Assembly: GCA_021779915.1 (NCBI GenBank)
Contig: JAJXZR010000029.1
Location: 12,495-76,494, forward strand
Direction: 5' to 3'
DNA from: a bacterium
GTDB taxonomy: Bacteria > Patescibacteriota > Minisyncoccia > CAIUEV01
DNA length: 64,000 bases
Below the pieces are notes generated by a model. The model saw only the letters and a program-made list of their open reading frames with translations, did no database searches and was not told where the DNA came from. Position 1 is the stretch's first letter. Each line of letters starts with the position of its first letter. The position numbers and the translations under genes were made by a program. Shown in pieces: positions 13,785 through 63,419 of this stretch.

Positions 13785-14004
13785 GTGTCATTCCCAGCGT
13801 GTCGACCGAGAATCCAGGAGGGTAGAAAATTATTCTAATTGACCTAATTATACTAATTATTCTAAACAAAATCCAAAAACCAATTTCTAAAATTTATTTT
13901 TATTGTTTGGTACTTGGTGCTTTTTTAGTATAATTAGTATAATTAGGTCAATTAGAATAATTAATGAGATTAAACTGAATCTCGTATTAAGCCCGAGATT
14001 ACAC
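13785..14004. repeat. MITE-like palindromic element, hairpin-TIR family, long subtype (H1)
   Basis: left terminus GTGTCATTCCCAGCGTGTCGACCGAGAATCCAGG, degenerate right terminus, internal ctaattat/ttggtgctttttt inverted module shared with the copies at 36851, 55222 and 63194. Confidence 0.65.
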
Positions 14005-14067
14005 AGATATAGGATATTTCGATTAAATATTTCTATACTATACATTTAAGATTTCAAATTACTCCAG

Positions 14068-15171
14068 ATGCAAATTCAGTCTCTTAAGACGTGGTTATCC
14101 GGCCACCAGTGGCTTCTCTGGCTCACGGTGGGAATGGCTGTAGTTATCAGTCTCAATACTCTTTACAGCATCTTTTATGGGACACCTCAGATCAAGATAT
14201 TCTATCACCAAATCATTTATGTTTTATTAGGATTTGTAATGGCTTATCTTATTGGTAGATATGATTACCGAATTTTTCGGCGTCATATTTTGGTGTTTTT
14301 TTTGGGAGCTTTGCTACTTTTGATTTTGGTTCTCGTTAGAGGCTTGAAAATCAATGGTACAACGGGTTGGCTAGATTTTAAAGTTTTTAGTTTTCAACCG
14401 GTTGAAGTGGCAAAGGTCGTAGTAATTTTAGCTTTAGCAACCTTTTTCGCTAAATATCACAATGTTTTGTATTCTTGGAAAGTTTTAGCTTTTTCCTTTT
14501 TAATTCCGTTGCCTTTTGCCACACTTACTTTATTACAACCAGACTTGGGATCAACTCTAGCTTTGATGGGTATTTGGGGAGGATTCATTTTTGCTTCCTC
14601 AGCCAGAAAAACTCAAAAAATAACCCTTATCGCTGTTACAGTGTCGATCGCTCTCTTTGGTTGGTTCTTTCTACTTAAGGATTATCAAAGAGATCGGCTT
14701 AGTACTTTTGTTAATCCGGAAAGAGACGCCCTTGGAACGGGTTACAACACTCTTCAGGCGGTAACTGCTATTGGTTCAGGAGGAGTGAAAGGCAAAGGAC
14801 TGGGTTTTGGCTCTCAAAGTCAACTCCATTTTCTTCCAGAAGCTCACAGCGACTTTATTTTTGCCGTTTTTGCAGAGGAAACCGGTTGGATTGGAGTGAT
14901 TATTTTTTTGGTCGCTTCCTTGCTTTTTTATTTTTCCATAATTAATATAGCTAGATTTAGCAAAGATAATTTTGGATATTTTTTAGTAGTGGGGATTTTC
15001 TGGTTTTTTCTTATTCATTTTTTTGTTAACGTTGGGATGAATCTGGGATTATTACCGATAGTTGGCCTTCCTCTCCCCTTCATAAGCGCTGGAGGGACAA
15101 ACCTCTTTGTTTCTTTTATCCTCGTGGGACTAGTACAAAGTGTTGGCAGACTAAGCCTTAAGAACAATTAA
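14068..15171 (+). CDS. FtsW/RodA/SpoVE (SEDS) family peptidoglycan glycosyltransferase
   Basis: 367 aa, about 10 TM segments, SEDS-family conserved blocks. Confidence 0.8.
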   Translation: MQIQSLKTWLSGHQWLLWLTVGMAVVISLNTLYSIFYGTPQIKIFYHQIIYVLLGFVMAYLIGRYDYRIFRRHILVFFLGALLLLILVLVRGLKINGTTGWLDFKVFSFQPVEVAKVVVILALATFFAKYHNVLYSWKVLAFSFLIPLPFATLTLLQPDLGSTLALMGIWGGFIFASSARKTQKITLIAVTVSIALFGWFFLLKDYQRDRLSTFVNPERDALGTGYNTLQAVTAIGSGGVKGKGLGFGSQSQLHFLPEAHSDFIFAVFAEETGWIGVIIFLVASLLFYFSIINIARFSKDNFGYFLVVGIFWFFLIHFFVNVGMNLGLLPIVGLPLPFISAGGTNLFVSFILVGLVQSVGRLSLKNN

Positions 15172-15208
15172 AAATTTATTAAGAATCTCTGTAAGAATAT
15201 TTTTTTGT

Positions 15209-15444
15209 GTGTCATCCTTGCGAAAGCGAGGATCCAGAGAAGTAAGACTGAAAAATTCCAAGAAACAAGAAGCAAGCTCCAAACAAATTAAAAATCACAA
15301 ATTCCAAACGAAAAAAGTTTTGAGTTTCGAATTTCGAATTTGGAAGATTGTATCTTGTTTGCCTGCCTACCGGTAGGTGGGTAATTTGTTTCTTGTCTCT
15401 TGGAATTTTACTTTCATGGATCCTCGCTTTCGCAAGGATGACAC
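15209..15444. repeat. MITE-like palindromic element, hairpin-TIR family with internal ccaagaaacaa/cctaccggtagg arms (H2)
   Basis: termini GTGTCATCCTTGCGAAAGCGAGGATCCAG ... GGATCCTCGCTTTCGCAAGGATGACAC are a perfect inverted repeat. Confidence 0.75.
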
Positions 15445-15456
15445 GGTGGAGTATCT

Positions 15457-15488
15457 TCTTGATAAACTCTATAACTTGATAAACTAAT
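15457..15488 (+). promoter_or_regulatory. CTTGATAAAC direct-repeat motif abutting the yebC start codon
   Basis: CTTGATAAACTCTATAACTTGATAAACTAAT then 4 nt then ATG; the same about 22-nt sequence precedes the ATGs at 667 and (rc) 37768. Confidence 0.5.
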
Positions 15489-15492
15489 TTAT

Positions 15493-16218
15493 ATGTCCGG
15501 TCATAGCCATTGGTCTGGTATAAAACGCAAAAAAGCGCTGGTTGATTCTAAAAGAGCCCAAAAATTTACTAAGTTGGGTAGGGCTATTACGATTGCCTCT
15601 CGAGAAGGAGGAGAAAATCCCGATTTCAACCCGAATTTACGCTTGGCTATCGAGAAAGCCAAAGAGTTTAATATGCCCAAAGATAAAATTCTGAATTCTA
15701 TCAAGAAAGGATCTTCTAAAAACGCTGAAGACCAACTGGAAGAAGTAACTTACGAAGCCCTGGGGCCGGAAGGTATAATGCTTGTTATTGAAACAATTAC
15801 AGACAATAGAAACCGTACAGTCTCAGAGATCAGGCACATTCTAGACGAACATGGCGGAAAAATGGCCGATGGAGGGGTGGGATGGAATTTTAGAAGAAGA
15901 GGGTTAATAACCTTTCAGGTTTTAGAGGAGCAAAAAGAAGAATTTGAATTAAAAGCTATTGAATGCTCGGTGGAAGACCTTATGGAGGAAGAAAAGGGTG
16001 CTGTTTCAGTTATATGCAGTCTTGAAGATATTGAAAAAATCAAAGAGAAGCTATCTGATTTTCCCATTATTGAAAATATTGTTGCTTATCTTTCTAACAA
16101 TCCGGTTGCTATTTCTGACAAAGTTCGAAAAAAATATGATATATTGTTAGACGATTTAGAGAATCAATCGGATGTTCAGGAAATCTGGGATAATGTCGAG
16201 AAAATAACGGTTATTTGA
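15493..16218 (+). CDS. yebC: YebC/PmpR family DNA-binding regulatory protein
   Basis: 241 aa; matches the YebC family along its full length. Confidence 0.85.
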   Translation: MSGHSHWSGIKRKKALVDSKRAQKFTKLGRAITIASREGGENPDFNPNLRLAIEKAKEFNMPKDKILNSIKKGSSKNAEDQLEEVTYEALGPEGIMLVIETITDNRNRTVSEIRHILDEHGGKMADGGVGWNFRRRGLITFQVLEEQKEEFELKAIECSVEDLMEEEKGAVSVICSLEDIEKIKEKLSDFPIIENIVAYLSNNPVAISDKVRKKYDILLDDLENQSDVQEIWDNVEKITVI

Positions 16219-16404
16219 TGAATAGTAGCGAATATAGGGCATATTATTCTATTTTATCGGTAAGACCCTTTATTTGACATATTATTAAGGTATGGTATTC
16301 CTTCAAAGTAAGGTATAAAGCGAGAAAAAGATATTTTGGTTTACTTAAAGAAAAAGAAATAATAATTTTGATTTTACTTTTAAAAAGAAAGGGGGTGAAA
16401 TTAA

Positions 16405-16677
16405 ATGAATAAAGAAGAATTAGTAGCTGCAATCGCTAAGAAAGCCGGTCTTTCAAAGAAAGACTCCGAAGGAGCCTTGAAATCCGCTTTGGAAGCCATT
16501 AAGGACGCCCTCAAAAAAGGGGGGAAGGTAACCTTGACCGGATTCGGAACTTTTATGGTCGCTAAACGAGCCGCCCGCAAAGGGGTAAACCCACAAACGG
16601 GAGCGGAAATCAAAATCCCAGCTCGAACAGTACCTAAGTTCAAACCGGGCAAAGCCCTCAAAGACGCCGTAAAATAG
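16405..16677 (+). CDS. hup: DNA-binding protein HU
   Basis: 90 aa HU fold with a GFGTF arm motif. Confidence 0.9.
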
Positions 16678-16708
16678 TCTTGGATAGAAACGAAATTAAA
16701 TAAGCAAA

Positions 16709-16738
16709 AAAGAGACCAAAAGTCTCTTTTTTGCTTTG
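16709..16738 (+). terminator. rho-independent terminator after hup
   Basis: AGAGACCAAAAGTCTCT hairpin plus TTTTTTG. Confidence 0.6.
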
Positions 16739-16785
16739 TAATAGAAATGCCAGCTATTTACAACCTTAAAAAATAGGAGTTACGT

Positions 16786-16880
16786 TATTAGTTCATAAAG
16801 TTCATAAAAAACATTAGAGGAAAATATTCCTTTTAACTTTACAAACTTTATAAACTTTCTAACTTTAAGAACTAGTTTGT
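16786..16880. repeat. degenerate copy of the TTCATAAAG/AACTTTATAAAC repeat module upstream of the GT4 gene
   Basis: gttcataaagttcataaa...aactttataaactttctaactttaag immediately before the ATG at 16881. Confidence 0.4.
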
Positions 16881-18038
16881 ATGCGTATTGGAGTCGATAT
16901 TAGATCTCTTAGTGCTGGAGGGCATTCTGGGGTGGAGGAGTATATTTTTAATCTTCTGCCTAATCTTTTCCGTTTGGGAAGGGAGGACCAGTTTGTTCTG
17001 CTTTACAACAGCTATTCCCGTGCTCTTCCGGAAAAAGTGAAAAAATGGGAAAAGTTACCGAACGTTAGTATTAAGGGATTTAAAATTCCCAGTAAATTGC
17101 TCAACGGTCTGCTTTGGCAGTTTAATTTTCCTTATCTCGATAAATTAATAGGCGGGGTGGATGTTTTTTTCTCTCCCAATATTACTTTCACTGCTGTTTC
17201 TGTAGGAACCCCCCACGTCATAACCATTCACGACTTATCTTTTGAGCTTTTTCCTCATTTTTTCAATTATTACAGGAGGTTGTGGCATTTTCTGGTTAAT
17301 CCTCGCAGACAGGCGAAAAAAGCAACGAAAGTAATTACTGTATCTAAATCGACGATGTCCGATGTAAACGAGCTGTACAGGATAAAAAAGAGCAAAATCA
17401 GACCGATTTATCTTGGGCTGTCTTCAATTTTTCAAAATTACACAAAAAATGAAAAGAAAGAAGAAAAAATTAGAAAAAAATATAAAATTCCCGCTAAACC
17501 CTTTATCCTTTACCTTGGTACTTTAGAGCCCAGAAAAAATATCGCTTCTTTGCTTTTGGCATTCAATGAATGGAAAAAGTCCTCTAAAGAAAATTACACG
17601 TTGGTAATTGCCGGAACAAAGGGGTGGTCCTTTCAGGAGATATTTCAATTGTCAGAGGAATCTCCTTACAAAAAAGATATTGTCTTTACCGGTGAGCTTC
17701 AAGAAAAAGATCGCCCCGCTATTTATAAAATGGCAAGCCTGTTTGTTTTCCCTTCTTTTTTGGAAGGTTTCGGTTTCCCACCCCTCGAGGCTCTTTCTTC
17801 AGGTGTCCCGGTAATTTGTTCGGCTTCTACTTCGCTTCTGGAAATATTTGGTGATCATTCCATTCTTGTCAATCCGCATGATGCAGGAGAATTGGCTTGG
17901 ACAATCGGCAGAGTCTTAGGCGACCAAGCCATTCAAGCTTCTTTGATTAAGGAAGGAGAGAAATATGCTAAGAAATTTACTTGGGAAAAAACAGCCAGGG
18001 AAACTTTGGAGGTGCTGAGAGAGGCAGGGGGAGAATAA
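16881..18038 (+). CDS. glycosyltransferase family 4
   Basis: GT-B fold; C-terminal GT4 motif E(G/A)FG.P..EA (FLEGFGFPPLEALSSGVPVI). Confidence 0.75.
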   Translation: MRIGVDIRSLSAGGHSGVEEYIFNLLPNLFRLGREDQFVLLYNSYSRALPEKVKKWEKLPNVSIKGFKIPSKLLNGLLWQFNFPYLDKLIGGVDVFFSPNITFTAVSVGTPHVITIHDLSFELFPHFFNYYRRLWHFLVNPRRQAKKATKVITVSKSTMSDVNELYRIKKSKIRPIYLGLSSIFQNYTKNEKKEEKIRKKYKIPAKPFILYLGTLEPRKNIASLLLAFNEWKKSSKENYTLVIAGTKGWSFQEIFQLSEESPYKKDIVFTGELQEKDRPAIYKMASLFVFPSFLEGFGFPPLEALSSGVPVICSASTSLLEIFGDHSILVNPHDAGELAWTIGRVLGDQAIQASLIKEGEKYAKKFTWEKTARETLEVLREAGGE

Positions 18039-18152: not shown

Positions 18153-18154
18153 TC

Positions 18155-20462: not shown

Positions 20463-20750
20463 ATGAAAAATATATTTTCTGACCAAAAAGACAATATTGA
20501 GAATAATATTGATGACTACGAAAAGGATATTCCAAAAGATGGTTTAGCGCAAAAAAGAAAAATATTGGATGCAATTGAAGAAGCCCCCAAGCCCTTTTTG
20601 AATCTCGAGGAAAAAGATTTAGGAGAATTGAAAAAATCCCAGGTGGATTATAAAACTCTCGTTGCTAATAGAAACCAGGGGGAATTTAGCAACGGAAACA
20701 GTGTAAAAGTAGATAATTTTTCTGGTTTAAGGAATAAACCGAGGTACTGA
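20463..20750 (+). CDS. hypothetical protein
   Basis: 95 aa acidic ORF; the stop codon is followed directly by repeat H3. Confidence 0.3.
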   Translation: MKNIFSDQKDNIENNIDDYEKDIPKDGLAQKRKILDAIEEAPKPFLNLEEKDLGELKKSQVDYKTLVANRNQGEFSNGNSVKVDNFSGLRNKPRY

Positions 20751-20754
20751 GTGT

Positions 20755-21005
20755 GTGTCATTCTCGGCGTGTCGACCGGGAATCCAGGAGGATAGTATTG
20801 GTCTAACAAAATTCCAAATTCCAAGAAACAAATTACCCACCTACCGGTAGGCAGGCAAACAAGATACGATTTTCCAAATTAAAAATTAAAAACATTATTT
20901 TTTTATTTTAAATTTGTGATTTTGAATTTGTTTGGAACTTGTTTCTTGCTTCTTGGAATTTTATGGTCTTACTTACATAGATCCTCGCTTTCGCAAGGAT
21001 GACAC
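20755..21005. repeat. MITE-like palindromic element, hairpin-TIR family with internal arms (H3), inverted relative to H2
   Basis: GTGTCATTCTCGGCGTGTCGACCGGGAATCCAGG ... GGATCCTCGCTTTCGCAAGGATGACAC; internal ttacccacctaccggtaggcaggcaaacaag. Confidence 0.75.
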
Positions 21006-21044: not shown

Positions 21045-22391
21045 TTGCAAAAATTCAAACAAATTCTATTTTTTCTAACTATCTTATCTCTTCCCATTGA
21101 GCTGGCTTTTGTTAAAATTGGTGGTAGGGATATTAAATTCTGGTTTATTTTTGCCGTTTTGGGGGGTGTTGTTGTTTTGGCGGATTGGTGGAAGAAGGGA
21201 ATAAAAGAAATAACCAGTTTGAAAAGTTTTTATCTGGGAATTGCTACGATATTTTTTTCTTGCATTGCCCTGGTCGATTCGCCTGTTAAATCTTTCTCGA
21301 TCCAGCAACTGGTAATTCTTATCTCGCTGATTACGCTGGCTATGTTTGTTGAAAAATATTCCAAGAGATGCAAAAAAAAAATTCCCTCAGGACTTGCCAT
21401 TGGCATGATCTTAAGCTCAATTCTGGCTATTTGGCAAAACATTGCTTTTAATCTAGGAAATCAAAGTCTTGAGATTATGGCGGCAAGACCCAATGCGCTT
21501 TTTCCGGAACCCGATTGGCTAGGGTTTTATTTGTCTTTAGGGCTGGTGTTCTTCGTTGTTTCAACAAGAAATAAACAGTTACCGGAATTTTTAAAAAACA
21601 AATTTTCTTTGAGCATTTTTTGGCTGTTAAATATTACGGCACTTATCATTACAGTCGCTAGAGCGAGTTGGTTGGCTTTTATTTTGGAAGCTGGCGTCAC
21701 ATCCTTGCTATTAGCCACTTCTCTTTACCTTAGAAAAAAAGATTTAAAAGAAGCTCTAACTGCCTTTTTAAAAAAAGGGGGGGCTTTTGTTGCTCTGATT
21801 TTAATTTCTATTGCCATTATCCAAATCTTCCAATTAACGCGCTTCAATCTTTTTGATCGAATGAGAAGTATTTTTTTTAAACAACATATTGTCACTATGG
21901 CTTATAATCCGATTACGAAAGAGAGCTTAAAAATAAATTTGGAAGAAAAAGAGACTTACATTCAAAAAGGATTTGAAATTAAAGATGCTTATGTGCCCGA
22001 TGAAAATGTTATAAGTCGAGAAGATAAGGCAGTAAGTGCGTGGGACATTATCAAGAAGCATCCGATCCTAGGAAACGGATTGGGAATTATTCTCATTGAA
22101 ACCAACTATCAACACAACGCCAATAATCTCTTTCTTGAATGGTGGGCAAGCGCCGGTATTGGAGGGTTGATGGCAATTACCGGAACCCTTGTTTATTTTA
22201 TTGTCAAAGGATTGACTTTTATTAAAAATGAGAAGCGAAAATCCATTCTGCTAATTGCCGGAACCTTGGGATTTATCGCACTCAATCTCTTTAACGCTTC
22301 GATACTCCTCGCTTTTGCATGGTTTTTTCTAGGATATCTTTTTTCGCTTACCCACGTGTCATCCCGGCCTCCGAGCCGGGATCCAGGATGA
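21045..22391 (+). CDS. O-antigen ligase/polymerase-like integral membrane protein
   Basis: polytopic protein with a Wzy_C-like loop (TVARASWLAF) and a periplasmic insert; the C-terminal 11 aa and the stop codon lie inside repeat H5. Confidence 0.4.
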   Translation: MQKFKQILFFLTILSLPIELAFVKIGGRDIKFWFIFAVLGGVVVLADWWKKGIKEITSLKSFYLGIATIFFSCIALVDSPVKSFSIQQLVILISLITLAMFVEKYSKRCKKKIPSGLAIGMILSSILAIWQNIAFNLGNQSLEIMAARPNALFPEPDWLGFYLSLGLVFFVVSTRNKQLPEFLKNKFSLSIFWLLNITALIITVARASWLAFILEAGVTSLLLATSLYLRKKDLKEALTAFLKKGGAFVALILISIAIIQIFQLTRFNLFDRMRSIFFKQHIVTMAYNPITKESLKINLEEKETYIQKGFEIKDAYVPDENVISREDKAVSAWDIIKKHPILGNGLGIILIETNYQHNANNLFLEWWASAGIGGLMAITGTLVYFIVKGLTFIKNEKRKSILLIAGTLGFIALNLFNASILLAFAWFFLGYLFSLTHVSSRPPSRDPG

Positions 22392-22394
22392 CAC
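22356..22394. repeat. solo hairpin unit of the GTGTCATCC family (H5) overlapping the 3' end of the upstream CDS
   Basis: GTGTCATCCCGGCCTCCGAGCCGGGATCCAGGATGACAC. Confidence 0.7.
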
Positions 22395-24623: not shown

Positions 24624-27600
24624 ATGTCTCTTTCGAAAAAAGTTAGTGGCGGAAAACAGCAAGATTTTGAGGAAATTGCCCTTCGTGATACAACCAGAAG
24701 ATTAAGCAGGGCTTCAGAAGAGGAACAGGCTGCCATTCGAGCGGCTGGGTCCGGTCTTCCTTACCTTGATCTCAATATTTTTCCCGTAGGGGCGGAAACT
24801 TTAAGCATTCTTCCCGAAGAAGTGGCTCGACTAGGAGAAATTACCGTTATCCAGAAAGCGGGACGAGAAATTAAGGTAGGAGTTTTTGACCCCAACAACA
24901 AAACCACTCAAGAAGTTTTGGAAAAGTTGGAAAAAGACGAAGGATATCGTATTAAACTTTACATCGTTTCCAGAACCAGTCTTAAAAGAACTTGGGATAG
25001 ATATAAGCACATTAATCTAGCTTCTTCCCTGGAAGATATGATGCTGACACTTTCTGGCAAGGATTTAGAAAAATTTGAGAACGACATTAAAGAGCTTGTT
25101 GACCTAAAGAAAAGAATCCGGGAACTTCCAACCACCGAAGTATTAAACGTCATTATCGCCGGTGCAATCAAGATGGATGCTAGCGATATCCACACCGAAC
25201 CTCAAAAAGATGATGTTCGCATCCGTTATCGTCTGGATGGAGTTTTGCATGACATTGTCCATATTCCTTACAATTACTACCCTTACGTCCTTTCTCGAGT
25301 GAAAATGCTTTCTGGACTCAAACTCAATATCAAAGACCGTTCACAAGACGGACGTTTTTCCATCAAAACTAACAAGTACGAGATTGACGTTCGTATTTCA
25401 ATCCTTCCGGGAAATTATGGAGAAAACATAGTAATGAGGCTTCTCAACCAAAACGAAACTGGATTCACTTTGGAAGATTTAGGTCTTCGCGGAAGAGCCG
25501 CTGAACAACTGGCTATTCAAATGGCCAAACCTAACGGAATGATTCTTAATACCGGACCTACCGGTTCTGGAAAAACCACCACTCTTTATGCTTGTATCCG
25601 CAAATTGAATTCTCCCGACACAAAAATAATCACTATTGAAGACCCGATAGAATATCGTTTGGCAGGTGTATCCCAAACTCAAGTTCACAAGGAAAGAGGA
25701 TATGATTTTGCTAATGGTCTTCGAGCGATTGTTAGACAAGACCCTGATGTAATTTTGGTTGGGGAAATCAGAGACGAAGAAACGGGAGATATTGCAGTCC
25801 ACGCCTCTTTAACGGGACATCTGGTGCTTTCCACCCTTCACACTAACAGCGCCGCCGGAGCTATTCCTCGTTTGATTGATTTGGGAATCCGGCCTTCTCT
25901 TATCACTCCTTCGATTAATTGTATTATTGCTCAAAGGCTAGTTCGAAAACTTTGTCCTTTTTGCCGGGAAGAATATGTTCCTGCTCAGGAGACTTTAGAA
26001 AGCATGAGTCGCTTCTTGTCGATTATTTCCCCTAAAGCGCGAGTAGAAGTTCCGAAAAATATCACCACTCTTTATCGGGCAACGGGCTGTCCAAAATGCC
26101 ACGGATTGGGATATAAAGGCAGAATCGGAATATTTGAAATTTTTGAAGTCACTCCTTCTATTGAGAAACTAGTTCTAGAAATGGCTCCTGCTTCCGATCT
26201 TTTGGCTGCTTCTATGGAAGAAGGGATGGTAACAATGCTTCAAGACGGAATCCTTAAGGCCGCCGAAGGAATGACTTCGATGGAAGAGGTTGAAAGAGTG
26301 ACGGGATCCGGCCAATACCTGCAAGAAATTTACGAAAAAATTATGGTGCAACTTCTTTCACTCCAGCTAAAAATCACCGCAAAGCAAGGCGAAGAAGTGG
26401 TTGGTTGCGGATATGAAGCAAAAAATATCGCTGACTACATTCAAAAAGCATCAAATAAAGATATTCTTAATTATATTGTGGCTGGAGGGCTTTCTTTCGA
26501 TGCGGGAGATATCCACATGGAACCGCAAGGAGATAGAATAAAAATCCGCTATCGGATTGACGGTATTTTGGAAGATATTACTGATATAAAGGCAAGCGAC
26601 TATTTGCCGGTTCTTTCTCAAATAAAACTACTGGCCGGACTCAAAACCGATTCCCACGCTGCCGTTCAAGACAGTCGTTTTGGGATCAGTCTCGAAACAC
26701 CGATCCGCGACATCCCTAATAAACAAATAGACGTGAGAGTTTCCATTATTACTGGAGGGTATGGAGAAACAGTGGTGATGAGACTTTTGCATAAATCAGC
26801 TCAAGCCCTGGAAGTAGAAAAAATCGGTTTCCGACCACAACTACTGGACAAACTATTACGCGAAATTGAAAAACCCAACGGAATGATTCTTAACACAGGA
26901 CCAACCGGTTCTGGAAAAACTACCACTTTGTACTCTCTTCTTAATCGATTGAATAAACCCGAAGTTAAAATCATCACTGTGGAAGACCCAATTGAGTATC
27001 GCTTGGCGGGAATATTGCAAACTCAGGTTTCAGTTGATGAAGGATACAATTTTGCCGACGCTCTGCGAGCGCTCCTTCGCCAAAATCCGGATATTATGAT
27101 GATTGGGGAAATTAGAGATGAAGAAACGGGAAAAATTTCTATCCAAGCCTCTTTGACAGGGCACTTGGTACTTTCCACTTTGCATACCAACAATGCCGTA
27201 GCTTCTATCCAACGTATGATCAATATGAACATCGACCCCACTGACATCGCCACCGCTACCAACGCCATGATGGCTCAAAGATTGGTCAGAAAGCTTTGTC
27301 CTGTTTGCAAAAAGAAAGTTCCTATTACTCCCGATAACAAAAAAAGATTGGAAGAAATTATTGCCGGAATTCACCCCTCGACTGGAATTTCAATTCCAAG
27401 CAACACAGTTGACTTTCTATATGAACCAGTTGGCTGTTCAGAGTGTAAAAACATAGGTTTCAAGGGAAGATTTCCCGTCGCAGAACTAATGCTAATGACT
27501 CCGACTCTCGAAGAAATGGTAGCCCACTTTGCCATCACTTCTGAAATTGAAAAACAAGCCATCCAAGAAGGAATGCTCACTATGACCCAAGACGCAGCCC

Positions 27601-27659
27601 TCCGCATCGCCGACGGAGAAACCAGTCTGGCCGAAGCAGCGAGATTGACAGAGCTATAA
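24624..27659 (+). CDS. tandem-fused double GspE/PilB-family ATPase (T2SSE_N domain plus two complete ATPase cores)
   Basis: two Walker A motifs GPTGSGKTTTLY at about aa 312 and 754, two Walker B DPDxIxxGEIRDEET boxes, two His boxes GHLVLSTLHTN, two tetracysteine motifs. Confidence 0.8.
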   Translation: MSLSKKVSGGKQQDFEEIALRDTTRRLSRASEEEQAAIRAAGSGLPYLDLNIFPVGAETLSILPEEVARLGEITVIQKAGREIKVGVFDPNNKTTQEVLEKLEKDEGYRIKLYIVSRTSLKRTWDRYKHINLASSLEDMMLTLSGKDLEKFENDIKELVDLKKRIRELPTTEVLNVIIAGAIKMDASDIHTEPQKDDVRIRYRLDGVLHDIVHIPYNYYPYVLSRVKMLSGLKLNIKDRSQDGRFSIKTNKYEIDVRISILPGNYGENIVMRLLNQNETGFTLEDLGLRGRAAEQLAIQMAKPNGMILNTGPTGSGKTTTLYACIRKLNSPDTKIITIEDPIEYRLAGVSQTQVHKERGYDFANGLRAIVRQDPDVILVGEIRDEETGDIAVHASLTGHLVLSTLHTNSAAGAIPRLIDLGIRPSLITPSINCIIAQRLVRKLCPFCREEYVPAQETLESMSRFLSIISPKARVEVPKNITTLYRATGCPKCHGLGYKGRIGIFEIFEVTPSIEKLVLEMAPASDLLAASMEEGMVTMLQDGILKAAEGMTSMEEVERVTGSGQYLQEIYEKIMVQLLSLQLKITAKQGEEVVGCGYEAKNIADYIQKASNKDILNYIVAGGLSFDAGDIHMEPQGDRIKIRYRIDGILEDITDIKASDYLPVLSQIKLLAGLKTDSHAAVQDSRFGISLETPIRDIPNKQIDVRVSIITGGYGETVVMRLLHKSAQALEVEKIGFRPQLLDKLLREIEKPNGMILNTGPTGSGKTTTLYSLLNRLNKPEVKIITVEDPIEYRLAGILQTQVSVDEGYNFADALRALLRQNPDIMMIGEIRDEETGKISIQASLTGHLVLSTLHTNNAVASIQRMINMNIDPTDIATATNAMMAQRLVRKLCPVCKKKVPITPDNKKRLEEIIAGIHPSTGISIPSNTVDFLYEPVGCSECKNIGFKGRFPVAELMLMTPTLEEMVAHFAITSEIEKQAIQEGMLTMTQDAALRIADGETSLAEAARLTEL

Positions 27660-27702: not shown

Positions 27703-27844
27703 GTGTCATCCCGGGCTTGACCCGGGATCCAGTTAGACTAACAGAATGTTATTTTAACGTGTATTTGTAAAAAACTAAACAAAAGAACGTTTTGTTAGAC
27801 TAACACTATTTTCCTGGATCCCGGCTCAGAGGCCGGGATGACAC
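27703..27844. repeat. MITE-like element, hairpin-TIR family, short subtype (H6)
   Basis: GTGTCATCCCGGGCTTGACCCGGGATCCAG ... CTGGATCCCGGCTCAGAGGCCGGGATGACAC; internal ttagactaaca modules. Confidence 0.75.
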
Positions 27845-33268: not shown

Positions 33269-33742
33269 ATGACTTTGAAAAAAAATATATCCTCCTTTTT
33301 AACTTTTTCTTTAATTTGGAAAATTATTTTTCCTCTTTTTTGTATTTCATCCGGGTTCTTGTCCGGATTTTTTTATAAACAGTATCTCGGAAAAGAAGAG
33401 TGCCTCAATCTTGCATTTTCCAACAATCAAGAAGCGATGAGTCAATCTCAAATAGAAGAAATCAGTCAACTTCTCAATCAAGGAAATGAGACGGGACCTC
33501 TGTCTCAAGAAAATTTAAACGCGAATCAAAATAATTCAAACGTGAATGCTAACCCACTCAAAGATACTCCTCAAGCCAATAATACTGGAACAGGCAAATT
33601 TGTTGGAAGCCAAAAAAGCGACAAATTTTATCCTATCGCCTGCCACTTCGCCAAAAGAATCAAGGAAGAAAACAAAGTCTGGTTTGCAAGTGTAGAAGAA
33701 GGCGAAAAAGCAGGAAGGAAGTTTGTGGAATGTAATAATTAA
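33269..33742 (+). CDS. secreted protein with a C-terminal Ada-type metal-binding-like domain
   Basis: signal/TM N-terminus; C-terminal F.V......YPIACHF......EN.VWFAS.EEGEKAGRKFVEC resembles the Ada_Zn_binding pattern. Confidence 0.3.
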   Translation: MTLKKNISSFLTFSLIWKIIFPLFCISSGFLSGFFYKQYLGKEECLNLAFSNNQEAMSQSQIEEISQLLNQGNETGPLSQENLNANQNNSNVNANPLKDTPQANNTGTGKFVGSQKSDKFYPIACHFAKRIKEENKVWFASVEEGEKAGRKFVECNN

Positions 33743-33789: not shown

Positions 33790-33961
33790 GTGTCACCCTA
33801 ACTCCACCTGTCATTCCCGCGAAGGCGGGAATCCAGGAAGATTTTATTAAATTAATAGAATGTTATTTTAGTTATTTTCTTAACTATAGAACCCAAACAA
33901 TCATTCTTTTAGTCTAATAAAGTATTAGTTTACTGGATTCCCGCCTTCGCGGGAATGACAC
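33790..33961. repeat. MITE-like element, hairpin-TIR family, short subtype (H7)
   Basis: GTGTCA...TGTCATTCCCGCGAAGGCGGGAATCCAGG ... CTGGATTCCCGCCTTCGCGGGAATGACAC; compensatory hairpin variant. Confidence 0.75.
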
Positions 33962-36850: not shown

Positions 36851-37095
36851 GTGTCATCCCGGGCTTGACCCGGGATCCAAGAGAATAGAAAATTGCTCTA
36901 ATTAACCTAATTATACCCACCGCCTAAGGCGGGATCCCGCTTTGCGGTGATAATTGACCTAAAAAAGCACCAAACAATAAAAAATAAATCTTGAAAATTG
37001 GTTCTTGGCATTTTATTTAGAACAATTAGATCAATTAGGGTAATTAGAATAATTGGCGAGTCTAACTAGATCCCGGGTCAAGCCCGGGATGACAC
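36851..37095. repeat. MITE-like element, hairpin-TIR family, long subtype (H8), inverted relative to H1
   Basis: GTGTCATCCCGGGCTTGACCCGGGATCCAAG ... CTAGATCCCGGGTCAAGCCCGGGATGACAC; internal aattagggtaattagaataatt module. Confidence 0.75.
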
Positions 37096-44759: not shown

Positions 44760-44899
44760 GTGTCATCCCGGGCTTGACCCGGGATCCAGGAGAGTGGTAT
44801 TAGTCTAATAAAATGTTAGTTTGTTCAATCTCTTACAATGCACATTAAAATAACATTCTGTTAGTCTAACTGGATCCCGGGTCAAGCCCGGGATGACAC
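44760..44899. repeat. MITE-like element, hairpin-TIR family, short subtype (H9)
   Basis: GTGTCATCCCGGGCTTGACCCGGGATCCAGG ... CTGGATCCCGGGTCAAGCCCGGGATGACAC; nearly perfect. Confidence 0.8.
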
Positions 44900-45050: not shown

Positions 45051-45755
45051 ATGTTTGATACTCGTGGACTTGAAAAATTTTCCTTAGTTGAATGGCCTGG
45101 GAAAATGTCGGCCATCATTTTCACCGGCGGATGCAATTTTCGCTGTCCTTTTTGTCATAATCCGGAATTAGTAACTGAGCTTCAAAAGACACCGATTTAC
45201 CCCTGGGAAGAAATTGAAAAATTTCTTAACAAAAAAGTGGGGTGGATTGATGCGATTATTATCACTGGGGGGGAGCCTACTCTACAAGAGAGTTTACCTG
45301 AAATTCTCCAAAAAATTAAAAAAATGGGATACTTAACCGGAATCGCAACTAACGGAACCAATCCTGAAATGCTGGAAGAACTGATAAGAAAAAACTTGCT
45401 GGACAAGATAGCTATGGACATCAAAAGCTCCGAGGAAAAATATTATTTAGCAACAGGCACGAATGAAGTTGGCTTGGAAAAAATTAAAAAGAGTATCAAT
45501 TTGATAATCAACAGTGGAATCGAATATGATTTTAAAGTGACTTTAGCTCCAGGAATAGTCGAAACTAGCGATATTGAAGGAATCGGGAAATTCATTAAGG
45601 GAGCAAAAAAAGTCACTCTTCAACAATTCCGCCCCCTTAAAACACTTGACAAAACCTTCGAACACAAAGTACCCTATTCACTAGATACTATTAAAGAAAT
45701 GAAAGAAATTTTGGGTAGTTACGTTGAAAGTGTTAGTTTGGAAGGAATAGAATAA
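45051..45755 (+). CDS. nrdG: anaerobic ribonucleoside-triphosphate reductase activating protein-like radical SAM enzyme
   Basis: WPGKMS...GGCNFRCPFCHNPE matches the NrdG-type signature (WPG, GCN.RC..CHN). Confidence 0.6.
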   Translation: MFDTRGLEKFSLVEWPGKMSAIIFTGGCNFRCPFCHNPELVTELQKTPIYPWEEIEKFLNKKVGWIDAIIITGGEPTLQESLPEILQKIKKMGYLTGIATNGTNPEMLEELIRKNLLDKIAMDIKSSEEKYYLATGTNEVGLEKIKKSINLIINSGIEYDFKVTLAPGIVETSDIEGIGKFIKGAKKVTLQQFRPLKTLDKTFEHKVPYSLDTIKEMKEILGSYVESVSLEGIE

Positions 45756-45836
45756 AAATTTCAATTTCTAATTTTCAATTTTCAAACAATTTTCAATTTA
45801 TTAATTACTCAATTACATAAATAATACCCGTCTAGT

Positions 45837-45928
45837 GTGTCATCCTTGCGAAAGCGAGGATCCAGGAGAATGATATTAGACTAATAGAGTATTAATTTCC
45901 TGGATTCCCGCTTTCGCAGGAATGACAC
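45837..45928. repeat. MITE-like element, hairpin-TIR family, minimal subtype (H10)
   Basis: GTGTCATCCTTGCGAAAGCGAGGATCCAGG ... CTGGATTCCCGCTTTCGCAGGAATGACAC. Confidence 0.75.
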
Positions 45929-46016
45929 GTGTTTCTTTGTTTGAAAATTAATGAATTGTAAAATTGAAAATTGTTTGAAAATTGAAAATTAGAAATTGAA
46001 AATTTTTTAATACACT

Positions 46017-47108: not shown

Positions 47109-47157
47109 TGATTTGAATTTCTAATTCACCTAATTTTTAATTTACCTAATAAAATAA

Positions 47158-47390
47158 CCAAATTCCAAGAAACAAATTACAAACAAGAAACAATTTTCCA
47201 AATTAAAACATCCCACGTGTCATCCCCGGCGTGTTGACCGGGGATCTAGGAAAATTATATTTTACTAGTCTAATATAATTCTCCTGGATCCTCGCTTTCA
47301 CAAGGATGAAACGCTAAAAGGGTATTGTTTTGTATTTCGAATTTGTTTGTAATTTGTTTCTTGCTTCTTGGAATTTTTATTAGAACTTAT
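47158..47390. repeat. composite element (H11): hairpin-TIR core (47217-47322) flanked on the outside by ccaagaaacaa inverted arms
   Basis: arm ...aattccaagaaacaaattacaaacaag... | GTGTCATCCCCGGCGTGTTGACCGGGGATCTAGG ... CTGGATCCTCGCTTTCACAAGGATGAAAC | ...cttgcttcttggaatt arm. Confidence 0.7.
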
Positions 47391-49673: not shown

Positions 49674-49702
49674 GGAATATAATTTTCAATTTGACTTATT
49701 TT

Positions 49703-49826
49703 TCTCCCCTTCAGATGAAGGGGAGTACCCCGTAGGGGGAGGGGTTTGATGCCGAAGGCCGAATTTTGATCGCTTCGCGTTCAAACCCTCCGCCCTTACG
49801 GGCACCTCCCTTCATCTGAAGGGAGG
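49703..49826. repeat. 124-bp GC-rich nested palindrome after the topA stop (G1)
   Basis: tctccccttcagatgaaggggag-taccccgtagggggaggggtttga ... tcaaaccctccgcccttacgggca-cctcccttcatctgaagggagg. Confidence 0.7.
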
Positions 49827-49872
49827 AAAAAGTCACCTTTTAGGTGAATTAGAAATTTTAATTATCTTTCCT

Positions 49873-55221: not shown

Positions 55222-55433
55222 GTGTCCTCCCGGGCTTGACCCGGGATCCAGTTAAACTCACTAAATTATTCTAATTGCTCTAATTAGCCTAATTATTCTA
55301 AACAAAATACCAAGAACCAATTAAAAAATTTTTGTTTATTGGTACTTAGTGCTTTTTAGAATAATTAGTATAATTAGGTTAACTAGAGTAATTCTCTACC
55401 CGCCTGGATCCCGGGTCAAACCCGGGATGACAC
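55222..55433. repeat. MITE-like element, hairpin-TIR family, long subtype (H12)
   Basis: GTGTCCTCCCGGGCTTGACCCGGGATCCAG ... CTGGATCCCGGGTCAAACCCGGGATGACAC; internal ctaattagcctaattattctaaacaaaata module. Confidence 0.8.
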
Positions 55434-55441
55434 CTTTCCTT

Positions 55442-56755: not shown

Positions 56756-56904
56756 TTTACAAAAATTATTGATTGCTTATATTATCCTATATTCTATTAT
56801 TATTGCAACTTCATTATGCTTATGGTAGAGTGATAGCGTAGATTAGAAATTTGATTAGTCATAGAACATTAAAATAATTACGATAAAATTCCAATAGCCA
56901 AGAT

Positions 56905-57128
56905 ACAATTTCCAAACAAGATACAATTTTCCAAATTTGAAAAACCAAACAACTTCACGTGTCATCCCGGCCCCTGAGCCGGGATCCAGAAAAATAATAT
57001 TTTAAGAGTCTAATATTATTCTCCTGGATCCCGGGTCAAGCCCGGGATGACACACTAAAAGGGTACTATTTGGAGTTTGTGATGCTTGAATTTGTTTGGA
57101 ATTTGTTTCTTGTTTCTTGGAATTTTTT
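56905..57128. repeat. composite element (H13): hairpin-TIR core (56959-57053) flanked by outer ccaaacaag / cttgtttcttgg arms
   Basis: GTGTCATCCCGGCCCCTGAGCCGGGATCCAG ... CTGGATCCCGGGTCAAGCCCGGGATGACAC. Confidence 0.75.
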
Positions 57129-59812: not shown

Positions 59813-59817
59813 AGAAG

Positions 59818-59996: not shown

Positions 59997-60087
59997 TAGA
60001 AATTTATCCCCCCTCTCTTGCCTTTCCCAAAAAAACCTCTCTATAATGGTAAGTTAGGCGTTTAAAAATTATTTCTAAATATTTTTT

Positions 60088-63000
60088 ATGTTTAAGTCCG
60101 TTGACCCTAAAATACCTCCCTCGGAAAGAGAAAAGAAAACCATCAAGTTTTGGAAGAAAAATATGGCTTTTGAAAAGTCCATTGAGAACAGACGGGAAGC
60201 TCCAATTTACAGCTTTTTCGACGGTCCTCCTTTTATTACTGGTGTACCTCATTATGGGACGCTTCTCTCTTCTATTGCTAAAGATGTGGTTCCTAGATAT
60301 TGGACAATGAGAGGTTATCGGGTTGACAGGCGTTGGGGTTGGGATTGTCATGGACTTCCGGCCGAACACATGGTGGAAAAAAAGCTAGGACTCAAGACAA
60401 AAAAAGAGATTGAGGAAGGAGTCGGAATCGAGAGATTTGTCTGTGAATGCCTCCGATCAACCAGCAAAGTCGCCTCTTCTTGGGAAGATACCATTGACCG
60501 CATCGGTCGTTGGATAGACTATAAAAATGCCTATCGTACCATGGACTCTGATTACATGGAATCGGTTTGGTGGGCTTTCAAAGAACTTCACAGCAAAGGA
60601 CTTATCTATAAAGACACCCGTATTTCTCTTTACTGTCCGCGTTGCGCCACTCCACTGGCTAATTTTGAAATTGCTATGGACAACAGTTATCAAGATGTGG
60701 TAGACGCCTCCGCCTTCGTTCGATTTCCTCTTACTCAAGAATCTAAGGAAAAATTGAGTCTTTCTGCAAAGGATCCGGTCTATTTCGTTGCTTGGACAAC
60801 TACTCCCTGGACTTTGCTTTCTAATTCCGGATTGGCAGTCAGTCCAAAGATGGATTATTTGGTAATCAAACCTAAAAAAGAAAAAGGCCTTTTAATTTTA
60901 GCCAAATCAAGATGGGAATATGTCAAAGAACTTGCAAAAATTGAGGGAGAGATAGTATCCGAAATAAAGGGAAGTGGTCTCGAGAATCTCACTTATGAAA
61001 GAATTCTCCCTGAAGAAACAGTTTACGAAAAATCAGAGAACGACAACGGTTTTCGAGTGGTTTTGGGGGATTTCGTTGAAGAAGACAACGGTAGTGGAAT
61101 TGTTCACATGTCTCCGGCTTTTGGGGAAGAGGACTACAAAAAAGGAAAGGAAGAAAATCTACCTATTCTCTTAAATGTTGACTCCGAAGGGAAGTTCATT
61201 GAAGGACAGTTTGAAGGAAAAAATGTTTGGGATGCCAACCCAAAAATTGTAGAACTCCTCAAAAAGAAAGAACTTCTCTTAGTGGAAGAAAAAATCACCC
61301 ACAGTTACCCATTCTGCCATCGATGTCACACAAAACTGATTTACAAAGTCCAACCGGCTTGGTTTATCAAAGTCAGTAGCCTTAAAGACCAATTAATTTC
61401 AGAAAATGAAAAAATCAATTGGCATCCAGAACATTTGAAACATGGAAGATTCTTGAAGGGAATTGAATCGGCTCCTGATTGGAATATTTCCCGAGACCGC
61501 TTTTTTGGTACCGCTATCCCTATTTGGGAATGTGAAAGTTGCAACAAACAAATTGCGGTCGGTTCCTACGACGAACTTTATCAGCTTTCGGGACAAAGAC
61601 TTGATGATTACCACCGACCTTACGTCGACAAAATCACTTTCAAATGCCCAGATTGCGAAAATACTTGTAGAAGAATTCCTCAAGTGCTTGATTGTTGGGT
61701 TGAATCAGCATCCATGCCTTTTGCGGAAAGACACTATCCTTTTAAAAACCAAGAAGATTTCAACCAAAAATTCCCTTGCGATTTTGTTTCCGAATACATT
61801 GGCCAAACTCGAGCCTGGTTTTTTGTAATGCACACAATGGCCGTCGCTCTTTTTGGAAAACCAGCCTTTAAAAATGTCGTTACCACTGGAGTCATCGCCG
61901 GTTCTGACGGGAAAAAAATGTCCAAGTCTTTGGGTAATTTTCCCGACCCAGAAGAAGTCCTCAATAAATATTCCGCGGACGCCTTACGCTTTTATCTTAT
62001 GAGTTCCCCTATTATGGAAGCTGAAAATATGAATTTTTCGGAAGAGAAAGTGGGAGAAATTCAAAAAGGTCTGCTTCGCGCCTGGCTTAATTCCTACTAT
62101 TTTTTCATCACTTACGCCCGCCTCGACAAATGGAAGCCCGATATGGAAATTCCTTTCCGTTGGAGCGACCCCCAATCTTTCAGAGAGGCTTGGCAAAAAC
62201 CAACAATCACTATCGACGCTTGGATTCTTTCCGAACTTCACACACTCCTCCGAGATATGCGAGAGTTTATGGATAATTACAAAATAGCAAGGGCTGCAAG
62301 ACTCCTTCCTCCGTTCCTGGACAAACTTTCCAATTGGTATATTCGAAGAAGTAGAAAACGTTTTTGGAAAAGCGAAAATGATGAAAACAAAAACGACGCT
62401 TATCAGGCTCTCTACGAAGTTCTTACCAAGCTTGGCCAGTCCGCCGCTCCTTTTTTGCCTTTTCTAACCGAAGAAATTTATCAAAATATTAATGTGTTTG
62501 AAGGAAAAGACTTAGAACTAGACGAAGGCAAAGAAATGAACAAAACCCTCAACAAAGAATCAATCCACCTAACCGACTTTCCTGAAGTAAATCCTATGCT
62601 CATCGATGAAGAGTTAAATCTTTCCATGGAAAGAGTGAGACAAATCGTAACCATTGGTCTTTCTCTTCGTGCAAAGAAAGGGATTAAAGTCCGCCAACCT
62701 CTTCAAACTCTTTTTGTGAAAGAGTTAGGGAACATTACCGAAGAACTTTGGGAATTGGTAAAGGAAGAATTAAATATTAAGGAGATAAAAGAAAAAACTA
62801 ATTTAGATGAGCTTATCTTGGAAAATAAACTTCCTCAAGATCTAATCGGGATAACCGAGAAAGAAGAAACTATTGCTATCGATTTAAAACTAAACGAAGA
62901 CCTTCTTCTCGAAGGAGAAATGAGGGAAGTGGTAAGACAAATTCAAGAAGGAAGAAAAAAGGCTGGATTCAATATTGAAGATCATATCATCCTCGGCTAC

Positions 63001-63156
63001 ATCGGAAAAGAAGAAATATTCAATCGCTTTGGCTATGTGATCAGCAAAGAAACACTGGCCGATGAAATATTTAACAAAGAACTTCCTGAGAAAGAATATT
63101 TTTTTGAGATTAAATTAGGAACAGAAAAAGTCAGTATTTCGCTTAAGAAAAAATAG
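60088..63156 (+). CDS. ileS: isoleucine--tRNA ligase, type 2 (eukaryote-like)
   Basis: GPPFITGVPHYG (type-2 IleS HYGH-region variant), KMSKS, WNISRDRFFGTAIPIW, Zn-binding CxxC pairs; 1022 aa. Confidence 0.8.
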   Translation: MFKSVDPKIPPSEREKKTIKFWKKNMAFEKSIENRREAPIYSFFDGPPFITGVPHYGTLLSSIAKDVVPRYWTMRGYRVDRRWGWDCHGLPAEHMVEKKLGLKTKKEIEEGVGIERFVCECLRSTSKVASSWEDTIDRIGRWIDYKNAYRTMDSDYMESVWWAFKELHSKGLIYKDTRISLYCPRCATPLANFEIAMDNSYQDVVDASAFVRFPLTQESKEKLSLSAKDPVYFVAWTTTPWTLLSNSGLAVSPKMDYLVIKPKKEKGLLILAKSRWEYVKELAKIEGEIVSEIKGSGLENLTYERILPEETVYEKSENDNGFRVVLGDFVEEDNGSGIVHMSPAFGEEDYKKGKEENLPILLNVDSEGKFIEGQFEGKNVWDANPKIVELLKKKELLLVEEKITHSYPFCHRCHTKLIYKVQPAWFIKVSSLKDQLISENEKINWHPEHLKHGRFLKGIESAPDWNISRDRFFGTAIPIWECESCNKQIAVGSYDELYQLSGQRLDDYHRPYVDKITFKCPDCENTCRRIPQVLDCWVESASMPFAERHYPFKNQEDFNQKFPCDFVSEYIGQTRAWFFVMHTMAVALFGKPAFKNVVTTGVIAGSDGKKMSKSLGNFPDPEEVLNKYSADALRFYLMSSPIMEAENMNFSEEKVGEIQKGLLRAWLNSYYFFITYARLDKWKPDMEIPFRWSDPQSFREAWQKPTITIDAWILSELHTLLRDMREFMDNYKIARAARLLPPFLDKLSNWYIRRSRKRFWKSENDENKNDAYQALYEVLTKLGQSAAPFLPFLTEEIYQNINVFEGKDLELDEGKEMNKTLNKESIHLTDFPEVNPMLIDEELNLSMERVRQIVTIGLSLRAKKGIKVRQPLQTLFVKELGNITEELWELVKEELNIKEIKEKTNLDELILENKLPQDLIGITEKEETIAIDLKLNEDLLLEGEMREVVRQIQEGRKKAGFNIEDHIILGYIGKEEIFNRFGYVISKETLADEIFNKELPEKEYFFEIKLGTEKVSISLKKK

Positions 63157-63193
63157 AAAGAAAGACCTGTATATACACAATCTTAATTTTAAC

Positions 63194-63419
63194 GTGTCAT
63201 TCCCGGCGTGTCGACCGGAAATCCAGGTTAGACTCACTAATTATTCTAATTTCTCTAATTGACCTAATTATTCTAAACAAAATCCCCAAAAACCAATTTC
63301 CAAATTTTATTTTTTATTGTTTGGTATTTGGTGCTTTTTTAGGTTAATTAGTATAATTAGGTCAATTAGAGCAATTTTACGTTCTCCCAGATCCCCGGTC
63401 GACACGCCGAGGATGACAC
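63194..63419. repeat. MITE-like element, hairpin-TIR family, long subtype (H14)
   Basis: GTGTCATTCCCGGCGTGTCGACCGGAAATCCAGG ... CCAGATCCCCGGTCGACACGCCGAGGATGACAC; internal ctaattgacctaattattctaaacaaaatcc module as in H1 and H12. Confidence 0.8.

Follow-up and report, generated by a model that had tools for sequence, protein, structure and literature searches.

A 64,000-nucleotide stretch of the genome of a Patescibacteriota bacterium (assembly GCA_021779915.1, contig JAJXZR010000029.1, positions 12,495 to 76,494; hereinafter, the window) carries 14 copies of a palindromic element type with hairpin ends. Every end is formed by a CGTC/TGTC-tagged repetitive extragenic palindromic (REP) sequence, or Ssn-related motif (SRM), consisting of a TGTC tag, an 8-bp hairpin that opens with A-T and T-A pairs, and a CCAG tail. 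Elements of this type form an already described, pan-bacterial class; what is new is the host phylum, Patescibacteria, and the high local density. The paired hairpins (dimers) in the window are probably the non-coding counterparts of an SRM-ssn-SRM unit and were probably spread in trans by an Ssn-type GIY-YIG nuclease. A first-pass annotation of the window had proposed a possibly new, protein-recognised, REP-type hairpin repeat. This interpretation was right in spirit, and recognition by a hairpin-reading protein is still the best reading, but the annotation was wrong on novelty (PMC3733652, PMC11893778) and on the enzyme family: the partner enzyme differs from the REP-associated tyrosine transposase (RAYT) that it named.

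Tagged hairpins in the window and across bacteria

The sequence GTGTCATYCC occurs 16 times in the window, compared to 0.10 expected occurrences, and GTGTCATCC, with at most one mismatch, occurs 31 times, compared to 6 expected; thus, the shared termini are real, and the motif is present at all 14 loci originally listed. A covariance model of the terminal hairpin (R1, built from 53 terminal hairpins and run on the window with filters off) detects 24 oriented hairpins at E<=5e-4, which are located in 13 of the 14 loci and nowhere else in the window. The copy at 11324 contains the motif but is a degenerate 32-bp hairpin that R1 does not score. Among the 24 hairpins, the tag preceding the stem is TGTC in 23 (GTGTC in 22 and CTGTC in one) and GTTTC in one; the stem is 8 bp long, starts with AT (pairs A-T, T-A) in 23 cases and is paired at all 8 positions in 21. 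The loops consist of 4 nt (8 hairpins), 5 nt (8), 6 nt (3) or 8 nt (5), so that 16 of the 24 fall within 4-5 nt. The tail starts with CCA in 20 hairpins (CCAG in 18, CCAT and CCAA in one each), and the remaining four tails are CTAG (twice), CTAT and CTGG. The resulting consensus of the window ends is TGTC-AT(C/T)C....G(G/A)AT-CCAG. Five stem classes, all quoted correctly in the first-pass annotation, coexist within the 64 kb.

All 11 complete pairs are arranged head to head, with the tags pointing outward (the + strand hairpin on the left and the - strand hairpin on the right). The two ends are therefore inverted relative to each other, as originally claimed, but their stem types agree in just 6 of the 11 pairs and differ in the other 5. 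The AT-rich spacers between the paired hairpins span ~34-190 bp, with five spacers of 150-190 bp, and whole dimers fold as single long hairpins of single-stranded DNA (z -9 to -13). Direct repeats were sought in the 6-nt flanks, where target-site duplications would be expected, and none flank any element. At gathering thresholds, an Rfam 15 scan of the window yields only 3 tRNAs and no family at the elements. Altogether, the elements make up ~2.2 kb, or 3.4% of the window (GC content ~37%), a density of ~1 hairpin per 2.7 kb. The repeats are unevenly spread along the available DNA: there is one dimer per ~4 kb between 13.7 and 63.4 kb, and ~20 kb at and before the window start (window 1-11300 together with 1-9334 of the upstream contig L130) are SRM-free.

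These hairpins fit the definition of the CGTC-tagged REPs (Di Nocera, De Gregorio & Rocco 2013, PMC3733652), so that the comparison with REP-type elements in the first-pass annotation was the right one. In that class, the tag is CGTC, with TGTC in many repeats; the stems are 8-9 bp long and nearly always open with complementary A and T; the loops are 4-5 nt long, with odd loops allowed in some genomes; and the tail fits CCA. The repeats mainly form head-to-head dimers, both homo- and heterodimers, some of them within longer palindromes, and are equated with Neisseria dRS3 (CGTC-1) and Rickettsia RPE-4/-6 (CGTC-1 being RPE-6). More recently, Chenal et al. 2025 (PMC11893778) described a 28-nt NTS, CGTCATTCCCGCGMAVGCGGGAATCYRG, and defined the degenerate SRM. 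One window element, E7, has TGTCATTCCCGCGAAGGCGGGAATCCAG at both ends, an exact match to the dRS3 consensus. The strict SRM expression, HGTCWYN(0-2)YYVSBRHN(0-5)WNVSBRGN(0-2)RNCYNB, is matched by 10 of the 24 window hairpins, with 0.04 matches expected from Markov shuffles; the other 14 miss it through loop length or single stem positions.

To assess the spread of the motif, we scanned one genome per species with the pattern GTGTCATYCN{8,20}GRATCCAG and obtained at least 120 loci in many phyla. The matches listed include Nitrospirales, Alpha-, Gamma- and Deltaproteobacteria, Bradyrhizobium, Rickettsia endosymbionts, Coxiellaceae, Planctomycetes, Bacteroidota, Chloroflexota and several Patescibacteria. 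A perfect SRM (GTGTCATTCCGCACTTGATGCGGAATCCAG) is also found at 365-394 of a contig (L041) binned as a Methanosarcinales archaeon, the binning being taken as given. Among 150 hairpins from the window and the loci listed, 120 show complete 8/8 stem pairing, with 70 distinct stem sequences; the search pattern leaves stem positions 5-8 free, and by our own estimate full pairing by chance would be expected in a few percent of the matches. A curated alignment with 53 distinct copies scores 0.62 for covariation, compared to 0.18 for shuffled alignments and at most 0.19 with slid partners, and both sides change at five of the eight stem pairs. Copies with fewer than 7 of 8 pairs had been left out of this alignment, so that its 99.5% pairing in part reflects the selection; without selection, the value is 120 of 150. 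Given the covariation score and the unselected pairing, the compensatory stem changes noted in the first-pass annotation are real and extend across phyla.

The link to Ssn and the gain of elements in one lineage

In Neisseria meningitidis, the motif is the target of SsnA, a 94-aa single-domain GIY-YIG protein that binds it in single-stranded DNA alone and in just one of the two orientations; the N. meningitidis enzyme and three homologues nick a few nucleotides 5' of the tag (PMC11893778). Ssn homologues are commonly flanked by the motif on both sides, an architecture that has been likened to an insertion sequence (PMC11893778). We recovered the same arrangement independently. Clustering of the small open reading frames (ORFs) from the 120 listed genome loci yields one recurrent family, with four members (L040, L090, L106 and L031), and in the first three of these a ~95-aa GIY-YIG ORF is flanked by one SRM on the + strand and another on the - strand; in L040, ORF and SRM are 2-13 nt apart at each end. 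Two of these three proteins were scanned against Pfam, and both match GIY-YIG. A metagenome scan with a full SRM, a gap of 285-315 nt and the start of an inverted SRM produced at least 120 loci, and 84 of the 120 listed enclose an Ssn-like, ~95-aa GIY-YIG ORF.

One such unit resides on a 9.7-kb contig (L153) with 7 SRMs, which comprise the pair around ssn and further non-coding dimers. The threonyl-tRNA synthetase encoded by this contig is identical to an NCBI protein from a 'Patescibacteria group bacterium', and all its named close homologues are from Patescibacteria. Thus, the complete SRM-ssn-SRM system occurs in this phylum, and because such pairs enclose ssn, on a Patescibacteria contig included, the elements of the window can be read as counterparts of this unit that lack the gene.

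Among the matches listed, the GC content of contigs with Ssn units varies between 32% and 68%. The interior of the unit (in the set L132-L251) is on average 9 GC points below its host contig, and lower in 69 of 71 parsed units, a difference that could reflect either repeated horizontal acquisition from donors of low GC content or the gene's own composition. In 39 of the 71 units, the stems on the two sides are not the same. A protein search with the low-GC Ssn of one unit (L177) returned mostly unnamed matches, Gammaproteobacteria being the sole named taxon. A lineage-specific version of the scan (type-A hairpin, 285-315 nt gap, inverted hairpin) gave 0 matches in metagenomes; a dedicated Ssn family is absent from NCBIfam, and PADLOC returns no match. 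Among viral contigs (IMG/VR), 35 of 123 pattern matches have 8/8 stem pairs, and an Ssn-like gene lies beside SRMs in 2 (L299 and L305), which does not make a strong case for phage carriage of Ssn units. The fourth member of the ORF family, in the Paceibacterota contig L031, was first taken as Ssn and then dropped: this 84-aa GIY-YIG gene (region 4090-4529) is located between two tRNA-like 5' copies (GAGAGGTCGCATAGTGG), without a flanking SRM, and from its sequence we take the protein to be UPF0213-like rather than Ssn-like.

Comparison with relatives indicates that the elements were gained in one lineage. The closest named homologues of the DnaJ protein encoded in the window are all from Patescibacteria, e.g., Tagabacteria, Nomurabacteria and Paceibacterota. 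Five relatives (L124/L125, L126/L127, L372, L373 and L374), with DnaJ proteins 59-70% identical to that of the window, share the gene order serS / radical-SAM / dnaJ / topA, and no SRM was found in ~100 kb of these genomes; therefore the expansion is lineage-specific. Once the element is subtracted, the window spacers are comparable in length to those of L124, the closest relative: 181 versus 139 for serS / radical-SAM, 169 versus 178 for radical-SAM / dnaJ, and 213 versus 230 for dnaJ / topA. The serS / radical-SAM spacer aligns with that of L124 except for the block that holds E9, and this missing block, together with the spacer lengths, points to a lineage-specific gain. The SRM-free relative has structured intergenic DNA of its own: an AT-rich module is repeated in L124 at 9822-10000 and 11089-11319, and the position equivalent to E10 contains two small GC hairpins (ATCGCCTGAGGCGAT and TCGCCTTTGGCGA) with AT-rich inverted arms, alike in layout but with a different hairpin.

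Element families, nesting and genomic neighbors

The elements, listed below, form several families. Whole elements of family I (E2, E8, E12 and E14) are 84-91% identical, E3 and E4 are 86% identical in inverted orientation, E6 and E9 are 87% identical, and E10, E11, E13 and part of E7 form a short group. Four pairs, E7, E10, E11 and E13 (at 33808, 45837, 47217 and 56959), lie within larger AT-rich palindromes, so that the repeat unit is sometimes bigger than originally claimed. Of these, E10, E11 and E13 are centred in the outer palindrome, 30-37 nt from each arm, and the E11 and E13 composites (~240 bp) are homologous, outer flanks included. The AT-rich palindromic module AAATTCCAAGAAACAAG has 12 matches in the window, compared to 1.3 expected. 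Eight close matches form four inverted pairs that always accompany an SRM dimer; in E3 and E4 they are enclosed by the two hairpins, and in E11 and E13 they surround them; given this variable placement, the elements are mosaics, like the Neisseria intergenic mosaic elements (NIME). In two copies, the right arm of the module precedes a gene by 40-75 nt, topA in one case and an NTP-transferase gene in the other. Two of the original extents required correction: the true left end of the copy placed at 33790 is 33808, preceded by a remnant, and the copy at 13785 has a decayed right end.

Hairpin elements and associated inverted module pairs in the window (window coordinates)
Feature	Position	Strand	Description
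E1	11324..11355	.	degenerate 32-bp solo hairpin (GTGTCATCCC...GGGATGACAG); seen in the sequence, unscored by R1
E2	13785..14004	.	long dimer, family I; left hairpin 13785-13817 (R1 24.8 bits); decayed right hairpin 13975-14004
E3	15209..15444	.	head-to-head homodimer, stem ATCCTTGC; palindromic module AAATTCCAAGAAACAAG in spacer
E4	20755..21005	.	head-to-head heterodimer ATTCTCGG / ATCCTTGC; spacer family of E3, inverted orientation
E5	22356..22394	+	solo hairpin, GATGACAC directly after
E6	27703..27844	.	heterodimer ATCCCGGG / ATCCCGGC; family III with E9
E7	33808..33961	.	homodimer, canonical dRS3/NTS stem ATTCCCGC-GAAG-GCGGGAAT; remnant half-site 33790-33807
E8	36851..37095	.	long homodimer ATCCCGGG, family I
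E9	44760..44899	.	homodimer ATCCCGGG between divergent serS and radical-SAM genes; missing in the alignable spacer of relative L124
E10	45837..45928	.	short dimer in outer AT-rich palindrome (arms 45754-45814, 45946-46006)
E11	47217..47312	.	short heterodimer in outer palindrome (arms 47146-47210, 47326-47383)
E12	55222..55433	.	long homodimer ATCCCGGG, family I
E13	56959..57053	.	short heterodimer ATCCCGGC / ATCCCGGG in outer palindrome (arms 56885-56926, 57086-57126)
E14	63194..63419	.	long dimer, ATTCCCGG / ATCCTCGG variants, family I
AAATTCCAAGAAACAAG inverted pairs	15253-15408, 20816-20961, 47160-47376, 56886-57125		

Contrary to the first-pass annotation, not all copies are intergenic: a Wzy_C-like ORF (21045-22391) ends within the solo copy at 22356 (E5), which supplies, at 22353-22391, its last 12 residues (HVSSRPPSRDPG) and its TGA stop codon. 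Elsewhere, several Ssn ORFs also run into a flanking hairpin. E1 and E5 are candidate excision footprints. Two genes for PilB-like ATPases of the T2SSE family (11994-13775 and 24624-27659, one with a duplicated T2SSE domain) are followed after 10-44 nt by the dimers E2 and E6, an adjacency that is possibly due to chance but is reminiscent of Neisseria, where NTS are reported to cluster near certain genes. The spacer between topA and a glycosyltransferase gene is filled by a GC-rich, imperfect palindrome of ~133 bp (49699-49831; arms of 59 nt, 76% complementary) that is unrelated to the SRM family and present as a single copy in the window; because the corresponding spacer in L124 is only 17 bp long, it looks like another inserted structured element.

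We also searched the window and its surroundings for a partner enzyme. The window proteins are found on a metagenome-assembled genome (GCA_027428295.1) and on several ENA and Logan assemblies as well, and longer contigs supplied flanks of 9.3 kb upstream and 6-8 kb downstream (~17 kb), extending the DNA covered to ~81 kb. Pfam annotation of the window genes reveals no transposase, in agreement with the first-pass annotation, and no HUH, TnpB/IscB, DDE or GIY-YIG protein. Small ORFs adjacent to the elements (20463-20750, 10926-11210, 33269-33742 and others) were considered as candidate nucleases and rejected, with nothing relevant in Pfam and no GIY-YIG motif. Past the downstream end of the window, the sequence is not the same in two assemblies from one population (13712-18491 of L129 versus 16807-20319 of L128): the L129 island contains a DDE_Tnp_IS1595 ORF, a Fic/RhuM gene and a DUF4325 gene, and L128 has other small ORFs; this region is strain-variable and contains no SRMs.

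Origin of the dimers and comparison with known systems

Several signs of mobility, namely whole-element copies that are 84-91% identical, SRM-free relatives, filled versus empty spacers, the low GC content inside Ssn units, and the folding of dimers as long single-stranded DNA hairpins, fit the probable origin of the window dimers from an Ssn unit. The dimers would derive from a compact SRM-ssn-SRM unit that codes for a ~95-aa single-domain GIY-YIG nuclease. A nick 5' of the tag would fall just outside a head-to-head dimer on either strand, and the dimers were probably copied around the genome in trans by an Ssn-type nuclease, whose gene would lie in another part of the genome or have been lost since. 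Copying would have taken place while the DNA was single-stranded, as in replication, repair or DNA uptake. Intergenic palindromes appear to be a preferred landing place, and once inserted, the dimers probably fold in transcripts too, as a side effect. The role of Ssn as the mobilizing enzyme, its presence in the host genome and the route of reinsertion are what we infer from these comparisons.

Several observations weigh against this scenario. Ssn profile hidden Markov models, built from 4 and then from 84 sequences, have no match in the six-frame translation of the window and its ~17-kb flanks, and the GIY-YIG proteins of the units are putative homologues of N. meningitidis SsnA. Alignment of filled and empty spacers does not reveal a nucleotide-exact insertion or empty site, the relatives being too diverged. 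GIY-YIG enzymes hydrolyze DNA and, to our knowledge, have no strand-transfer activity; nor do we know of any demonstration of transposition of CGTC REP or SRM repeats. The activity of SsnA is lost when the stem sequence is changed with the structure kept (PMC11893778); with five stem classes in the window and different flanking stems in 39 of 71 units, one enzyme of Neisseria-like specificity would not serve all of them. Finally, the family may no longer be active, since the copies are only 84-91% alike and E1, the right end of E2 and E5 are decayed.

The last of these points leads to a serious alternative, one that we consider unlikely overall: an Ssn unit could have invaded the lineage, spread dimers and then been lost, leaving orphan repeats that only decay or drift and perhaps have been co-opted as RNA structures. 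The lack of Ssn in 81 kb, copies that fall short of near-identity, and the decayed copies, to which the E7 remnant can be added, all fit this course of events, as does the published figure of 19% for genomes without an Ssn homologue among those that hold more than 200 SRMs (PMC11893778). However, the full pairing of 21 of the 24 hairpins, with tag and tail kept, argues for recent activity or selection, the 81 kb represent a minor part of the genome, and an intact unit is present on the Patescibacteria contig L153.

Distinctly less probable is a lineage expansion with five stem classes that involved no resident Ssn at all, or Ssn enzymes of several specificities, and in which the dimers mark single-stranded DNA and gate the recombination of incoming DNA. 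Patescibacteria are thought to rely on type IV pilus-mediated DNA uptake, and the two PilB-like genes of the window are directly followed by dimers. If true, this would extend the role of NTS and Ssn in the control of transformation from Neisseria to the candidate phyla radiation and could also reveal a mobilizing activity other than Ssn.

It is very unlikely that the elements are first of all host regulatory structures (terminators, mRNA stabilizers, sites of processing, promoter carriers) that persist because of this function and not as mobile DNA. They do fill spacers between co-directional genes, with a distance of often 5-50 nt to the preceding stop codon and 37-60 nt to the following start, they would be expected to form strong structures in RNA as well, two composites (E11 and E13) have their outer arms immediately upstream of genes, and many REPs have been argued to work as RNA elements (PMC3733652). 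Yet five relatives have the same gene junctions without the elements, E9 and E13 are located between divergent genes, and the unpaired tag and tail, kept in one orientation across phyla, fit a protein ligand on DNA, with SsnA binding no RNA (PMC11893778). The terminator role suggested in the first-pass annotation is unlikely as a primary function: the hairpins are not followed by a T-run, and none of 12 terminator-like sites in a scan of 44-58 kb is at an SRM.

Mobilization by a RAYT, as in REP doublets (REPINs), or by an IS200/IS605-type TnpA or a TnpB/IscB partner, which the first-pass annotation had suggested, is highly improbable. Such elements do resemble those of the window in having short tagged hairpins whose inverted doublets fold into a single long hairpin, and in the lack of target-site duplication. 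However, the tag here is TGTC/CGTC rather than GTAG, no HUH or TnpB gene is present in the window, and neither a dedicated transposase nor a tyrosine transposase gene flanked by CGTC repeats has been found (PMC3733652). The gene enclosed between the hairpins is a GIY-YIG gene in the 84 listed metagenome loci and the 3 genome loci, and the ends of IS200/IS605 elements lie on one strand, unlike the opposite strands here.

Classical miniature inverted-repeat transposable elements (MITEs), that is, deletion derivatives of an insertion sequence whose DDE transposase reads terminal inverted repeats, are barely credible here: the inverted ends, small size and intergenic location make the original label 'MITE-like' loosely right, and an IS1595 transposase ORF lies ~5 kb past the window end in the strain variant L129, but there are no target-site duplications, five pairs are heterodimers with non-identical ends, the elements are mosaics, that ORF has no flanking SRM, and the motif is common to many phyla with varying stems, unlike DDE inverted repeats.

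These results remove a false lead, in that there is neither a new hairpin transposon nor a link to RAYT or TnpB, and add several facts: a high density of CGTC-REP/Ssn motifs in a streamlined Patescibacteria genome, expansion in one lineage among syntenic relatives, a single architecture for non-coding dimers and SRM-ssn-SRM units across phyla, and the landing of dimers inside other palindromes. They support the unproven idea, raised but untested by Chenal et al. (PMC11893778), who show only cleavage and an effect on transformation, that the SRM-ssn-SRM unit is a mobile element. The filled spacers of the window and the empty ones of its relatives offer a small natural system for addressing the question of mobility.

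Among known systems, the NTS/SRM-SsnA pair shares with the window a near-identical consensus (CGTCATTCCCGCG...GCGGGAATCYRG versus TGTCATTCCCGCGAAGGCGGGAATCCAG in E7) and the SRM-gene-SRM unit. The differences are that 81 kb around the elements contain no ssn gene, that the window stems vary beyond the tolerance of N. meningitidis SsnA, and that neither Patescibacteria nor non-coding dimers as derivatives of the unit are discussed in that work. Patescibacteria are host-dependent. Enrichment of SRMs has been reported in symbiont-type genomes, and SRM-rich genomes are put at more than 200-300 copies each (PMC11893778).

The CGTC-1 and CGTC-2 REPs (PMC3733652) agree with the window elements in the unpaired CGTC/TGTC tag, the 8-bp stem opening with A-T and T-A, the CCA-type tail, loops of 4-5 nt (in 16 of the 24 window hairpins), the head-to-head majority with both homo- and heterodimers, occasional copies at ORF ends and nesting in longer palindromes. 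They were listed in 5 phyla, none of them Patescibacteria, and the window differs in having some 6- or 8-nt loops, five spacers of 150-190 bp compared to the usual 20-100 bp, and five stem classes within 64 kb. The same hairpin occurs in Neisseria dRS3 and NIME and in Rickettsia RPE-4 and RPE-6, where it also forms mosaics with other repeat modules, and RPE copies are intragenic or located at ORF ends, like E5; in contrast to the isolated dimers of the window, dRS3 is found in large clusters, and the spacer modules are unrelated. REPINs and RAYTs resemble the system discussed here in that tagged hairpins form inverted doublets that fold as one, flank a small dedicated enzyme gene and leave no target duplication, but differ in the GTAG tag and in the enzyme, an HUH tyrosine transposase with a covalent intermediate as opposed to a hydrolytic GIY-YIG nuclease.

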